This document shows positions 54,271 through 60,250 of a stretch of DNA of 64,000 nt, one piece after another. The position numbers were made by a program, and so were the translations under genes. The notes beneath the pieces were generated by a model that worked only from the letters and a program-made list of their open reading frames with translations, was not told the DNA's origin and did no database searches. Origin of the DNA: Escherichia coli (GTDB lineage Bacteria > Pseudomonadota > Gammaproteobacteria > Enterobacterales > Enterobacteriaceae); assembly GCF_009931435.1 (NCBI RefSeq), contig NZ_CP043414.1, one strand, 5' to 3'. Each line of letters starts with the position of its first letter. Position 1 is the stretch's first letter.

Positions 54271-54497
54271 ATTAAAGGGCATTAGTTCAGATATGCATTG
54301 ACATTTTCATGGCACAAGGTAGAGCTAGCGTGGTTGTTCGCTTTGTGCCAAGAGTGGTCATTGATAATATTTTGGTGGGTTACATCTGTCAATGTTTCAG
54401 GTGATATGATATACAAATAGCCAGACTTAGACTGGCATGCTGTTTATTTTTATATTATGGGTGTGCCACATGGATTTAAAACTTATTGAGATATGAC

Positions 54498-55523
54498 ATG
54501 GATACTTTTCATAATATTTTGCTTGAGCACATAGACAGCCTTTTAAAAGAGAGACTTGATTTATCTGGTGACGCTGATATCGAAAAAGAAATTAATAACC
54601 TAATTCCCAAAATAGTCATTGTCGTTAAAAAATCTCTTATTGGCTCGGCCAATGCAATGCTTAGAGAACATCGTTCTCTTTGTGATGAATTTGTTGAGAG
54701 AAATATTTCAAGATGGGCAGAGGCTTTTGATTTGCTCGAAACACTTATAGTGATATGCACGGAGTCCGGTGAAGAGTTCAATCGTTCTTATAGACCACAA
54801 GCTGCCTCTGAAGAGGATGTGGTTTTTGATTTAGTCGTTCGGCATCACGCAAGAGCTTGCCACATCGCCAACGAAATTTTGTGTCTCTTAAAGAATGGAT
54901 TTGCAGATGCTGCCCAAGCGAGATGGCGAGCACTTCATGAGGTAGCAGCCACAGCTATGTTTATAGCAAAGCATGGAAAAGAGTGTGCTGAGCGCTTTTA
55001 CTACCATGAAGTGGTTGATTCATATACTGGAATGTTGGAACACAAAAAGTACGAGCACCGGTTAGAAGCAAAAGGTCCAACTATTGAAGAAATAGCTGAG
55101 TGCAAAGTTCAATTTGATCTATTAATAAAAAAATACGGCAAAAAATATGCAGATAATTATGGGTGGGCATCTTATATTTTCCCTAACCATAATAAAGTGG
55201 GGTTTGGAGCTATTGAGAAAGATGTTCAGTTAGAACACATGCGCCCTTATTATAAGTGGGCGAGTCAGAATGTACACACCGGTTCCAAGGCAATGAGAAA
55301 TAGGCTTGGTCTCTGTGAAACTGGTGATGATATATTATTGGTCGGGCAAAGTGATTCAGGAATGGCTGATCCAGCCCATGCTACTGCTATTAGTTTGATG
55401 CAGATTACTGTGACACTTTTATTCTTAAAACCAACCATTGATCATGCCGTCATTTCAAAAATAATACAGGATTATTCTGATGAGATTGGAAATGTATTTC
55501 TTAAAATTGATAAGGGTAATTAA
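54498..55523 (+). CDS. orphan AT-rich hypothetical protein (341 aa from ATG; 345 aa from TTG at 54486), function unknown
   Basis: Uninterrupted 1-kb ORF; visibly AT-rich versus flanks (about 38-40% GC by eye); no TM segments, no P-loop; no recognised homologue. Confidence 0.7.
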   Translation: MDTFHNILLEHIDSLLKERLDLSGDADIEKEINNLIPKIVIVVKKSLIGSANAMLREHRSLCDEFVERNISRWAEAFDLLETLIVICTESGEEFNRSYRPQAASEEDVVFDLVVRHHARACHIANEILCLLKNGFADAAQARWRALHEVAATAMFIAKHGKECAERFYYHEVVDSYTGMLEHKKYEHRLEAKGPTIEEIAECKVQFDLLIKKYGKKYADNYGWASYIFPNHNKVGFGAIEKDVQLEHMRPYYKWASQNVHTGSKAMRNRLGLCETGDDILLVGQSDSGMADPAHATAISLMQITVTLLFLKPTIDHAVISKIIQDYSDEIGNVFLKIDKGN

Positions 55524-55905: not shown

Positions 55906-56109
55906 TTGGCCAGGTGACGGGAGTTAAGTAGAATGGCTGCGGGTGCTTGAGGCTATCTGTCTCAGGCATGAACACCAAAGGCAGATAGAGAAAAGCCCCA
56001 GTTAACATTACGCGTCCTGCAAGACGCTTAACATTAATCTGAGGCTCAATCTATGAACGGCAAATCTAGGTTAGCCTCTTACGTGCCGAAAGGCAAGGAG
56101 AAGCAGGCT
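55906..56109 (+). promoter_or_regulatory. hok promoter and 5' leader
   Basis: TTGGCC-17 bp-TAGAAT; leader GCGGGTGCTTGAGG (55939-55952) complementary to 3' CCTCAATGCACCCGC (56315-56329), consistent with hok fold-back pairing. Confidence 0.5.
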
Positions 56110-56265
56110 ATGAAGCAGCAAAAGGCGATGTTAATCGCCCTGATCGTCATCTGTTTAACCGTCATAGTGACGGCACTGGTAACGAGGAAAGACCTCTGCG
56201 AGGTACGAATCCGAACCGGCCAGACGGAGGTCGCTGTCTTCACAGTCTACGAACCTGAGGAGTAA
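56110..56265 (+). CDS. hokD: Hok/Gef-family type I toxin
   Basis: 51-aa MKQQKAMLIALIVICLTVIVTALVTRKDLCEVRIRTGQTEVAVFTVYEPEE, near-identical to K-12 HokD/RelF as recalled. Confidence 0.9.
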   Translation: MKQQKAMLIALIVICLTVIVTALVTRKDLCEVRIRTGQTEVAVFTVYEPEE

Positions 56266-56333
56266 GAGACTTGGCGAGGGAGAAATCCCTCGCCACCTCT
56301 GATGTGTCAGGCATCCTCAATGCACCCGCACTT

Positions 56334-56358
56334 AACCCGCTTCGGCGGGTTTATTTTA
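56334..56358 (+). terminator. intrinsic terminator of hok mRNA
   Basis: AACCCGC-TTCG-GCGGGTT hairpin followed by TATTTTAT. Confidence 0.7.
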
Positions 56359-56723
56359 TCTGTAAATATTTTTATAAAAATAATGCCCACACACAGCATA
56401 AAACAAAAAGTATCACAGATAAAAAAGGAGCGTAATGTGCAGATTTGTTGTTTTCCATATTTACTCACTTTAACATAATCAATATTGATATGGTTGTTGT
56501 TTCGGTGGTTTCAAACGAGATGTTATGGTGATCTGGTAAAATTGCATAACATTAAAATTTAATTTATCTAATCGCTTTTAATAATAAGCGTTGTGTTTAT
56601 CCCAATAATCTGTTGTTTGACTTTTATTCCATTAATGTAGGGGCTTTACACTGGAACCAGTTTATTTATACTTTATACGCCAGCCTGAACAACTGGCACC
56701 TGCTGCGCCAGCAGAGACAACCG

Positions 56724-57002
56724 ATGGCGCACGATACCAAATTACACAATTCTGATGATTCTGCCGTCTTTGCCAGCAGGTGCGGACGGCGTTTTCATGC
56801 ATTCAAATCGGACTGGTTCCAGCATCCACCATGCACTGAAGAGCAGGCTGAATGGATAATTCAGTGTTACCGCAGGCGCGGATACGAGGTTAAAAAAGCC
56901 CTTAGCCTCGACTACCGTCACTGGATAATCTCAGTCAGATTGCCTTACTCCGAACGCCCACCGCGTCCGTCCCACACATTCCAGCAACGCATCTGGAGGT
57001 AA
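56724..57002 (+). CDS. rem: Rem-like prophage protein (start uncertain; ORF opens at 56613)
   Basis: ORF upstream of ydfU in the K-12 Qin rem position; start chosen at first ATG. Confidence 0.45.
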   Translation: MAHDTKLHNSDDSAVFASRCGRRFHAFKSDWFQHPPCTEEQAEWIIQCYRRRGYEVKKALSLDYRHWIISVRLPYSERPPRPSHTFQQRIWR

Positions 57003-57003
57003 C

Positions 57004-58053
57004 GTGCGGGTATTACTTCGACCTGTTCTGGTACCGGAACTCGGGCTGGTGATCGTTAAGCCGGGCCGTGAATCCATGCCGGTATTCCACAATACCCGGT
57101 TACTGGTGGAGCCGGAACCGAAAAGCATGCGTAATCTGCCGTCCGGGGTCGTTCCTGCCGTTGGCCAGCCGCTGGCGGAAGACAAAACATTGCTGCCGTT
57201 TTTTAGTAACGAACGGGTGATTCGTGCTGCTGGCGGCGTTGGCTCATTGTCTGACTGGCTATTACGTCATGTTACATCCTGCCAGTGGCCTAATGGCGAT
57301 TACCATCACACTGAAACAGTCATTCACCGTTATGGTACCGGCGCAATGGTGTTGTGTTGGCACTGCGACAACCAACTGCGTGACCAGACATCGGAATCAC
57401 TGGAGCTGCTTGCTCAACAAAATCTGACAGCATGGGTGATTGACGTCATCCGTCACGCAATAAGCGGTACGCAGGAGCGGGAATTATCTTTGGCTGAATT
57501 ATCCTGGTGGGCGGTCTGCAATCAGGTGGTGGATGCACTACCTGAGGCTGTATCGCGTCGTTCGCTGGGATTACCAGCGGAAAAAATCTGCTCGGTGTAC
57601 CGCGAAAGCGACATCGTACCGGGAGAGCAGACCGCCACCAGCATATTGAAACAACGCACAAAAAATCTTGCACCGTTGCCTTACGCCCACCAGCAACAAA
57701 AACTACCACAGGAAAAGACGGTGGTAAGCATCACCGTTGATCCAGAGTCTCCGGAATCTTTCATGAAGCTGCCTAAACGTCGCCGCTGGGTTAAGGAGAA
57801 ATACACACGTTGGGTTAAGACACAGCCGTGTGCTTGCTGCGGTATGCCAGCCGACGATCCGCATCATCTGATTGGTCACGGGCAGGGCGGAATGGGAACA
57901 AAAGCACATGATCTCTTTGTGTTGCCTTTGTGCAGAAAGCATCACAACGAGCTGCATACGGATACAGTGGCATTTGAAGAGAAGTATGGCTCCCAACTGG
58001 AGCTGATATTTCGTTTTATCGATCGCGCGCTGGCAATTGGCGTACTGGCGTAA
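57004..58053 (+). CDS. ydfU: YdfU-like protein (DUF968) with C-terminal HNH-like Cys/His motif
   Basis: 349-aa ORF, GTG start; CACCG...DDPHHLIGHG...CRKHHNELH. Confidence 0.8.
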   Translation: MRVLLRPVLVPELGLVIVKPGRESMPVFHNTRLLVEPEPKSMRNLPSGVVPAVGQPLAEDKTLLPFFSNERVIRAAGGVGSLSDWLLRHVTSCQWPNGDYHHTETVIHRYGTGAMVLCWHCDNQLRDQTSESLELLAQQNLTAWVIDVIRHAISGTQERELSLAELSWWAVCNQVVDALPEAVSRRSLGLPAEKICSVYRESDIVPGEQTATSILKQRTKNLAPLPYAHQQQKLPQEKTVVSITVDPESPESFMKLPKRRRWVKEKYTRWVKTQPCACCGMPADDPHHLIGHGQGGMGTKAHDLFVLPLCRKHHNELHTDTVAFEEKYGSQLELIFRFIDRALAIGVLA

Positions 58054-58066
58054 GTGGAGAACGAGC

Positions 58067-58819
58067 ATGAACCTTGAAGCCTTACCAAAATATTACTCCC
58101 CAAAATCTCCAAAATTGAGCGATGACGCTCCAGCGACAGGCACCGGTTGTTTAACAATTACGGATGTAATGGCAGCGCAGGGGATGGTGCAGTCGAAAGC
58201 ACCACTTGGGTTGGCCTTATTTCTGGCAAAAGTTGGTGTTCAGGACCCTCAGTTTGCGATTGAAGGCCTGCTAAATTACGCGATGGCACTGGATAACCCG
58301 ACATTGAACAAATTGAGTGAAGAAATCCGGTTACAGATTATTCCTTACCTCGTGAGTTTTGCCTTTGCTGATTACTCCAGGTCTGCGGCAAGTAAGGCTC
58401 GCTGTGAGCATTGTTCAGGTACGGGATTTTATAATGTATTGCGCGAAGTGGTGAAACACTACAGACGCGGGGAATCTGTAATCAAGGAAGAATGGGTGAA
58501 GGAACTATGTCAGCATTGCCATGGTAAGGGCGAAGCCAGCACAGCGTGCAGAGGGTGTAAGGGTAAAGGGATTGTTCTGGATGAAAAAAGAACCCGGTTT
58601 CATGGCGTACCGGTATATAAGATTTGTGGGCGTTGTAATGGAAACCGGTTTAGTCGTTTACCGACCACGCTGGCACGACGTCATGTCCAGAAGCTGGTAC
58701 CAGACCTGACCGATTATCAGTGGTATAAGGGGTATGCGGACGTCATTGGTAAACTGGTAACAAAGTGCTGGCAGGAAGAAGCATACGCGGAAGCGCAATT
58801 GAGGAAGGTGACGAGATAA
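58067..58819 (+). CDS. quuQ: late-gene antiterminator Q-like protein
   Basis: ORF 58037..58819; start at MNLEALPKYY (250 aa); four CxxC zinc-finger repeats. Confidence 0.85.
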   Translation: MNLEALPKYYSPKSPKLSDDAPATGTGCLTITDVMAAQGMVQSKAPLGLALFLAKVGVQDPQFAIEGLLNYAMALDNPTLNKLSEEIRLQIIPYLVSFAFADYSRSAASKARCEHCSGTGFYNVLREVVKHYRRGESVIKEEWVKELCQHCHGKGEASTACRGCKGKGIVLDEKRTRFHGVPVYKICGRCNGNRFSRLPTTLARRHVQKLVPDLTDYQWYKGYADVIGKLVTKCWQEEAYAEAQLRKVTR

Positions 58820-59240: not shown

Positions 59241-59453
59241 TCATGAAAGGTAAACATTGGCAGCTGAAGGGCCACGCAGACCATTTATCCGGCAAAATTC
59301 CACGCGTAATCCGGTGGTAATTTCTTCTGCATCGCGGAGATTGAGCGCTGAAACATGAAGCTGGACATCGATACGACCATCGGATGGGGTGATAAGACCC
59401 TTGCCGCTTTTGCCGTCAAAGGTTTTGACAATTCCTGTCATTTTACGGGACAA
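59241..59453 (-). CDS. cspF: cold-shock-domain protein CspF-like
   Basis: 70-aa CSD ORF divergent from cspB. Confidence 0.85.
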
Positions 59454-59753
59454 AAAAATTCCTTAATACTGATAACTTGGCGCACTATACACACGTTCCT
59501 GAAGAAAGCTATAGTTTTTTGATGGGGTTGAAGATGGCTGGATGTCTAAAATAAACATTGCTTCATATGTTCAACTATGCGTTAATGATTGCGTCGGTTT
59601 GAAGAACAGACGATATACGAAGTAGTTTACTAAAGCAGTTCTCATTTCAGGTGTTATTCACTTATTCCTTCTTTGAGTCTCTCCAATTAAGTACGAAGTC
59701 GTTTCTGTTATGCAAACCATTTATGCCGAAAGGCTCAAGTTAAGGAATGTAGA

Positions 59754-59969
59754 ATGTCAAATAAAATGACTGGTTTAGTAAAATGGTTTAACGCTGATAA
59801 AGGTTTCGGCTTTATTTCTCCTGTTGATGGTAGTAAAGATGTGTTTGTGCATTTTTCTGCGATTCAGAATGATAATTATCGAACCTTATTTGAAGGTCAA
59901 AAGGTTACCTTCTCTATAGAGAGTGGTGCTAAAGGTCCTGCAGCAGCAAATGTCATCATTACTGATTAA
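59754..59969 (+). CDS. cspB: cold-shock protein CspB
   Basis: 71-aa ORF with RNP1-like KGFGFI motif; about 300-nt upstream leader typical of cold-shock genes. Confidence 0.9.
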
Positions 59970-60250
59970 AATTCATCGCTCGTCTGTATACGATAACGAA
60001 GAAGGCTGATGCCTGAGTAGAGATACGGACAGAGTAGTGAATATTGGATTTCTTTAATAAAAATTAAGGAGGTCCAATACATGAAACAATGGCCAGCATA
60101 TTTGGCAAAATCTTAATCAGGAAAAGTATGCTAACCATTGTGGTGAAGTGCAGGTTTGCTGCATGAATAGTTTTACAGCAGAAGCTAACTGCTGGCATGG
60201 CAAAACAAAGTGCGTAAGTGGATGACTCCCACAAAAAGCACCACAATCTC

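Follow-up and report, generated by a model that had tools for sequence, protein, structure and literature searches.

The window considered here is a stretch of 64,000 nucleotides from Escherichia coli (RefSeq assembly GCF_009931435.1, contig NZ_CP043414.1), and the gene under study is ydfU, encoded on its plus strand at 57004-58053, stop codon included. An earlier reading, made from the letters alone (the sequence-only reading), had described this open reading frame (ORF) as encoding a YdfU-like protein with an HNH-like motif just upstream of the Q gene. The frame is intact, with a GTG start and 349 codons, and its product is 97% identical over the full 349 residues to K-12 YdfU (b1560; DUF968, PF06147; His-Me finger group 7), its ortholog in the Qin prophage, from which it differs at twelve amino acids. 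The 3-kb neighbourhood of the gene shares 99.8% identity with Qin-like prophages from other E. coli, in which the RefSeq label is ydfU, 'DUF968 domain-containing protein', and 5057 of the 5426 complete E. coli genomes contain matches to parts of it. The gene is thus the ydfU of a Qin-like defective lambdoid prophage, i.e. the K-12 gene in another strain. Its placement just upstream of Q is also correct, since the adjoining 3' gene at 58067-58819 matches the Antiterm/Q family PF03589 (E=4e-54).

YdfU comprises an N-terminal domain matching PHROG 11007 (residues 1-158, 57004-57477, plus strand), a middle helical region with a low-confidence linker (residues 159-245, 57478-57738, plus strand), of which residues 230-239 are predicted to be disordered, and a C-terminal domain placed among the His-Me finger (HNH) nucleases (residues 246-349, 57739-58050, plus strand), which is preceded by a conserved basic segment (D246..P257-K258..W). 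DUF968 begins at residue 160, in the middle region, and the whole Pfam model is matched, to residue 346, at 257.7 bits against a gathering threshold of 27.8 (E=7e-77); PHROG 96, 'HNH endonuclease', matches the full-length protein (E=1e-171). Two further models score under their gathering thresholds, i.e. HNHc_6 (PF16784), which covers Orf-HNH fusions of Gram-positive phages and misses narrowly (25.6 vs 26.6 bits, some close YdfU homologs having a precomputed match), and RecA_dep_nuc (PF16786), the family of the P1 nuclease Ref (18.4 vs 26.9 bits). The NCBIfam models gave no match to YdfU.

Comparison of profiles with the HNH/Ref families, which the sequence-only reading had proposed as a check, gave hhalign E values for the YdfU profile of 1.3e-5 to Ref and 1.8e-5 to the prophage protein YbcO. 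In the register with Ref, C276/C279 correspond to C96/C99, H287/H288 to H112/H113, and C310-x2-H313-H314 to C130-x2-H133-H134. When a profile of the C-terminal domain was compared with PDB sequences, YbcO was found first (E=0.013), followed by the HNH domains of McrA and IscB. The structure of YdfU, predicted from its alignment with 35 diverse full-length homologs (26-79% identity), has a predicted local distance difference test score (pLDDT) of 88, and in the C-terminal domain it places a strand (residues 285-288), a long loop, a second strand (306-309) and a helix (311-319), that is, a ββα-metal topology. The features that define the His-Me finger superfamily, namely a core β-hairpin with an α-helix, a histidine on strand 1 and candidate metal-ligand residues in the helix and loop, are accordingly all predicted for this domain. 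A non-nuclease zinc ribbon, the outcome that had been named as telling against an HNH assignment, is not what the prediction shows, and that alternative is unsupported because both the predicted topology and the profile comparisons are of the ββα-metal/HNH type. The DUF968 and PHROG 96 matches put the motif far beyond chance, and together with the predicted fold they support the HNH assignment made from the letters.

The peptide on which that assignment was based, CACCGMPADDPHHLIGHGQGGMGTKAHDLFVLPLCRKHHNELH, corresponds to residues 276-318 (57829-57957, plus strand). Conservation within it was scored on the 150 best representatives of clusters formed at 50% identity, with denominators that vary by position. 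The putative zinc ligands are C276 (conserved in 77/80), C279 (66/84), C310 (74/87) and H313, a position occupied by His or Cys in 67/86. In some homologs both the second and the third cysteine are missing; such paired loss is usual in HNH branches that gave up zinc. The putative catalytic residues are H287 (79/87), near the end of strand 1; H288 (His in 80/86), the final residue of that strand, which aligns with Ref H113 and YbcO H32; D303 (88/89), at the loop position of the HNH asparagine; and H314 (77/85) and H318 (76/83), both on helix 311-319. The canonical HNH asparagine is not present as such, Asp303 being near-invariant in the loop and Asn315 of the 'HHNELH' segment being variable. 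By alignment, H288 may be the general base, with H287, H314 and H318 as candidate metal ligands and C276, C279, C310 and H313 as candidate ligands of a structural zinc. Every catalytic-type residue is present in the YdfU of the window.

The N-terminal domain is itself confidently predicted (pLDDT 92), with a β-hairpin (residues 105-118) followed by a helix (119-125), and contains a second conserved zinc-type site that includes the motif L-C-W-H-[CH]-D-N (residues 117-123, nucleotides 57352-57372, plus strand). Its four putative ligands, which in the window protein are C93, H101, C118 and C121, are conserved more tightly than the HNH motif: C93 in 84/85, His or Cys at position 101 in 82/85, C118 in 85/86 and Cys or His at position 121 in 84/85. 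An hhalign comparison of the N-terminal with the C-terminal profile (E=0.083; 0.89 for a reversed control) pairs C93 with C276 and LC118 with LC310, the register to be expected, which hints that the N-terminal domain may be a degenerate second His-Me module, the E value being too weak for a claim. Gram-positive DUF968 proteins have been described as fusions of Orf-like domains with an HNH zinc finger (Curtis et al., PMC4118853); a lambda Orf/NinB-like N terminus was rejected for YdfU, where such similarity is undetectable (E=0.46). In four proteins (P0146, P0188, P0190 and P0254) the N-terminal 150-250 residues of YdfU are fused to tail-tip J, collar or tail-fibre domains; these are most likely chimeric ORFs produced by large deletions in decaying prophages, rather than real architectures.

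A search for related loci with an alignment of the C-terminal region returned near-identical E. coli prophages only, and these were used to estimate the ratio of nonsynonymous to synonymous substitution rates (dN/dS). In comparison with alleles of 87-88% identity, dN/dS is 0.10 for the whole protein and 0.05 for its HNH domain, so that YdfU is under purifying selection despite its residence in a defective prophage. The SfII-type alleles differ in their pattern from one domain to another: overall identity to the window YdfU is 58%, with the HNH domain ~94% identical (dN 0.03), and dN reaches ~0.56 for the N-terminal domain and ~0.53 for the middle region. This domain-wise mosaicism suggests either recombination inside ydfU or very unequal constraint.

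In phages, tblastn located the family in 186 records, and the hosts of the inducible or plaque-forming phages that carry it include Escherichia, Shigella, Klebsiella, Salmonella, Yersinia, Edwardsiella and Vibrio; ydfU is also carried on Stx2 phages. For a diverse view of gene context, annotated phage records were used. At the inspected loci the YdfU homolog is the last early gene, directly 5' of a late-gene activator, which is a PF03589 Q in the window and in Yersinia YeP1, a PF06530 Q in SfII and an Stx2a phage, a DUF1133 protein in a Klebsiella phage and Edwardsiella EPP-1, and Lpa in P1, SJ1 and a P1-like contig. The exceptions are one metagenomic contig in which a small ORF intervenes and another in which RusA lies downstream. 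It may be that this adjacency reflects no more than the module order of lambdoid phages. RusA is encoded one or two genes 5' of the homolog in five loci, and YdfU is therefore not simply a substitute for RusA. A KilA-N or Rha protein, together with RusA, is often encoded just 5' of YdfU homologs.

The P1 representative, PdcB (AF234173, 88540-89583, 'unknown function'), is a full-length homolog, with 26% identity over 91% of the protein and a DUF968 match at E=4e-50. It has in common with YdfU the N-terminal C...C...LCWHHDN motif and a gene position directly 5' of the late activator lpa, and it retains the four zinc cysteines and the Asp303 position. The catalytic-type histidines, however, are replaced (HH to PY, H314 to Q, H318 to E), and PdcB is probably inactive as a nuclease, judging from these substitutions. 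P1 insertion mutants in pdcB are viable (PMC10067587). A relative of PdcB, P0212, lies in a P1-like gene context.

Around ydfU, the window has the lambdoid order of replication genes, a DUF5677 gene, hokD/sok, a 92-residue hypothetical ORF, ydfU, Q, cspF/cspB and lysis genes. The 92-residue ORF (56724-57002, plus strand) has its stop codon at 57000-57002 and so ends 1 nucleotide before the ydfU start; since it also contains, within its 3' end, the GGAGG Shine-Dalgarno ribosome-binding site of ydfU (56995-56999, plus strand), which lies 4 nucleotides before the GTG, the two genes may be translationally coupled. Pfam and PADLOC scans of this ORF were without match, and it is unrelated to Rem, the occupant of the position in MG1655. 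A promoter-like site with 10/12 matches lies 5' of it at 56645-56672. Downstream, ydfT, the Q-type late-gene antiterminator (PF03589), occupies 58067-58819 (plus strand, 250 residues) with the RefSeq start, which leaves a 13-nucleotide gap after ydfU, whereas the start in the ORF list, a TTG at 58037, overlaps the ydfU end. The K-12 locus likewise has hokD upstream and ydfT/Q, cspF and cspB downstream, but differs in having rem, rather than the 92-residue ORF, immediately 5' of ydfU, and in the presence of relBE at a corresponding position, where the window has none.

Further from ydfU, the DUF5677 protein (54486-55523, plus strand, 345 residues, E=6e-34), which gave no match in a PADLOC scan, is encoded between the replication module and hokD and looks like the product of an accessory (moron-type) gene. 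The hokD/sok type I toxin-antitoxin locus spans 55941-56351 (plus strand), with an Rfam sok match at 55941-56115 (110 bits), the end of the hokD coding sequence at 56265 and a terminator-like hairpin at 56334-56351. On the other side, an Rfam cspA thermoregulator (59593-59985, plus strand, 158.8 bits) extends over the 5' leader and the start of a cspB-like gene (59754-59969), from which a cspF-like gene (59241-59453, minus strand) diverges.

The HNH assignment of YdfU is already known from the Pfam clan structure, PHROGs, several GenBank phage annotations and a survey of His-Me finger proteins; the annotated homologs include SfII gene 47 and Stx2a_WGPS2 gp24, both 'HNH endonuclease'. The survey places DUF968 and DUF1364 together as 'group 7', and names Qin YdfU (NP_416078) and YbcO (3G27), with RusA and Q as neighbours (Jablonska et al. 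2017, PMC5714182). The modest new points made here are the second zinc-type domain, the P1 branch that is apparently inactive and the repeated location of the gene next to late activators. Among the proteins that are related in fold, YbcO of prophage DLP12 (PDB 3G27, DUF1364, 'putative nuclease') is a single domain of 96 residues that lacks the N-terminal domain and has one His (AH) at the strand-1 position, where YdfU has HH; its activity is putative. P1 Ref (PDB 3PLW, PF16786), a RecA-dependent HNH endonuclease of 186 residues, has a disordered basic N terminus where YdfU has a folded zinc-type domain of 160 residues, and ~18 extra residues after its HHQH segment, a long insertion in the core helix (the 'helical finger') that carries H153 and has no YdfU counterpart. 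Lambda NinG/Rap (PF05766), a branch-specific endonuclease, is of the HNH type, is encoded in the nin region shortly 5' of Q and is dispensable for growth (PMC5714182; PMC10695390); it is the functional analogue that we prefer for YdfU. Membership of YdfU in the NinG/Rap family was rejected, with no Pfam match at E<=1 and an hhalign E value of 0.0056 over 18 columns at the zinc knuckle.

On balance, we consider it fairly probable that YdfU is a two-module HNH nuclease that acts on phage DNA intermediates. The analysis shows which gene this is, its predicted fold, the conservation of its residues, purifying selection on it and the gene order, whereas metal binding, catalysis, substrate and biological role are inferred, as follows. 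The N-terminal zinc-binding domain would be joined to a C-terminal His-Me finger nuclease of ~100 residues, belonging to the DUF968/YbcO/Ref group. In the latter, C276, C279, C310 and H313 would bind a structural zinc, with the attacking water activated by His288 and the catalytic divalent metal coordinated by His287, His314 and His318, and the place of the canonical asparagine is taken by Asp303; the N-terminal ~160 residues would most likely supply DNA or substrate recognition. Since no other delayed-early ('nin region') gene lies between ydfU and Q, the protein would be made only during lytic development, when it would most likely cut phage recombination or replication intermediates, as do NinG/Rap, RusA and P1 Ref. 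A role as a metal-dependent endonuclease is favoured because ydfU occupies a position equal to those of lambda NinG/Rap and DLP12 YbcO. Upstream of the K-12 ydfU there is a Rho-dependent terminator that ranks among the strongest measured in vivo (PMC9160355), in keeping with silence of a nin-region gene in the lysogen.

Several observations weigh against this proposal. Searches of PDB sequences with the whole protein, the C-terminal 99 residues or the full-length profile returned nothing relevant, and Foldseek gave no significant match (best E=0.49). The fold is retained in PdcB and P0212 although both have lost His287/288, His314 and His318, and P1 forms plaques without pdcB (PMC10695390). 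K-12 ydfU is among the uncharacterized genes in the 2024 y-ome paper (PMC11551758), a literature search found no nuclease assay for YdfU or any full-length homolog, and the combination of a defective prophage with the upstream Rho-dependent terminator of K-12 may mean that ydfU is rarely expressed.

The loss of the histidines in PdcB and P0212 implies that the family tolerates loss of catalysis, which keeps alive the idea that YdfU is mainly a non-catalytic zinc-finger protein, DNA-binding or regulatory, the modules of which bind DNA or the target region of the late activator without cutting. PdcB and its relatives have kept the whole architecture and the position 5' of Lpa despite their substitutions, and the tighter conservation of the N-terminal zinc motif and the location of the homologs beside late activators from four unrelated families point the same way. 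However, the catalytic-type residues are intact in the window protein and in ~90% of cluster representatives, and constraint within the protein is strongest in the HNH domain (dN/dS 0.05), a pattern expected of an enzyme with occasional inactive offshoots, so that we regard a mainly non-catalytic role as unlikely. The same features, i.e. the location upstream of four unrelated families of activator, the N-terminal motif as the most conserved element and a P1 branch without catalysis, underlie a broader proposal, in which the YdfU/PdcB family would be a tandem of two modules derived from His-Me fingers, the N-terminal one ancient, catalytically degenerate and zinc-binding and the C-terminal one usually active, with a family role tied to the late-expression switch or late DNA processing rather than general recombination; this we consider improbable. 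A strictly Ref-like enzyme, inactive alone and cutting only DNA in a RecA filament or D-loop, would accord with the hhalign similarity to Ref, but the sub-threshold score of the Ref model, the missing insertion after HHQH and the folded zinc domain in place of a disordered tail all speak against it. The presence of Ref alongside a YdfU homolog in P1 itself also suggests that the two have different roles, and a strictly Ref-like YdfU is rather unlikely, if slightly less so than the tandem-module proposal.

Roles outside the processing of phage DNA intermediates have less to commend them. HNH domains occur commonly among defence and toxin systems (PMC5714182), and ydfU is intact in a defective prophage, near hokD/sok and the DUF5677 gene, as might be expected of an accessory gene encoding a host- or competitor-directed nuclease for superinfection exclusion, defence or toxicity. 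Membership in a known defence system was, however, rejected, PADLOC-DB giving no match at E<=0.01 for YdfU and its two upstream neighbours. Further, no conserved immunity or antitoxin partner adjoins the gene, which is part of a core gene order conserved among functional temperate phages (SfII, Stx2, Klebsiella, Yersinia and P1-like), not of a variable island; such a role is distinctly improbable. Certain HNH proteins of phages act together with terminases (cited in PMC4330346), and in P1-like elements the gene for the YdfU homolog is two genes 5' of pacA/pacB, so a terminase-associated function in cos or pac cleavage during packaging might also be envisaged. In lambdoid phages, though, Q and the lysis cassette lie between ydfU and the terminase genes, and P1 can dispense with pdcB but not with pacA/pacB (PMC10695390), and PdcB is without the catalytic histidines; we consider a packaging role very improbable.

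The gene ydfU is among the most widespread uncharacterized prophage genes of E. coli. The practical value of the analysis is that it identifies candidate residues in both modules, i.e. H288, D303 and H314 in the C-terminal domain and C93 and C118 in the N-terminal domain, together with a comparator, P1 PdcB, that is probably a naturally inactive form.
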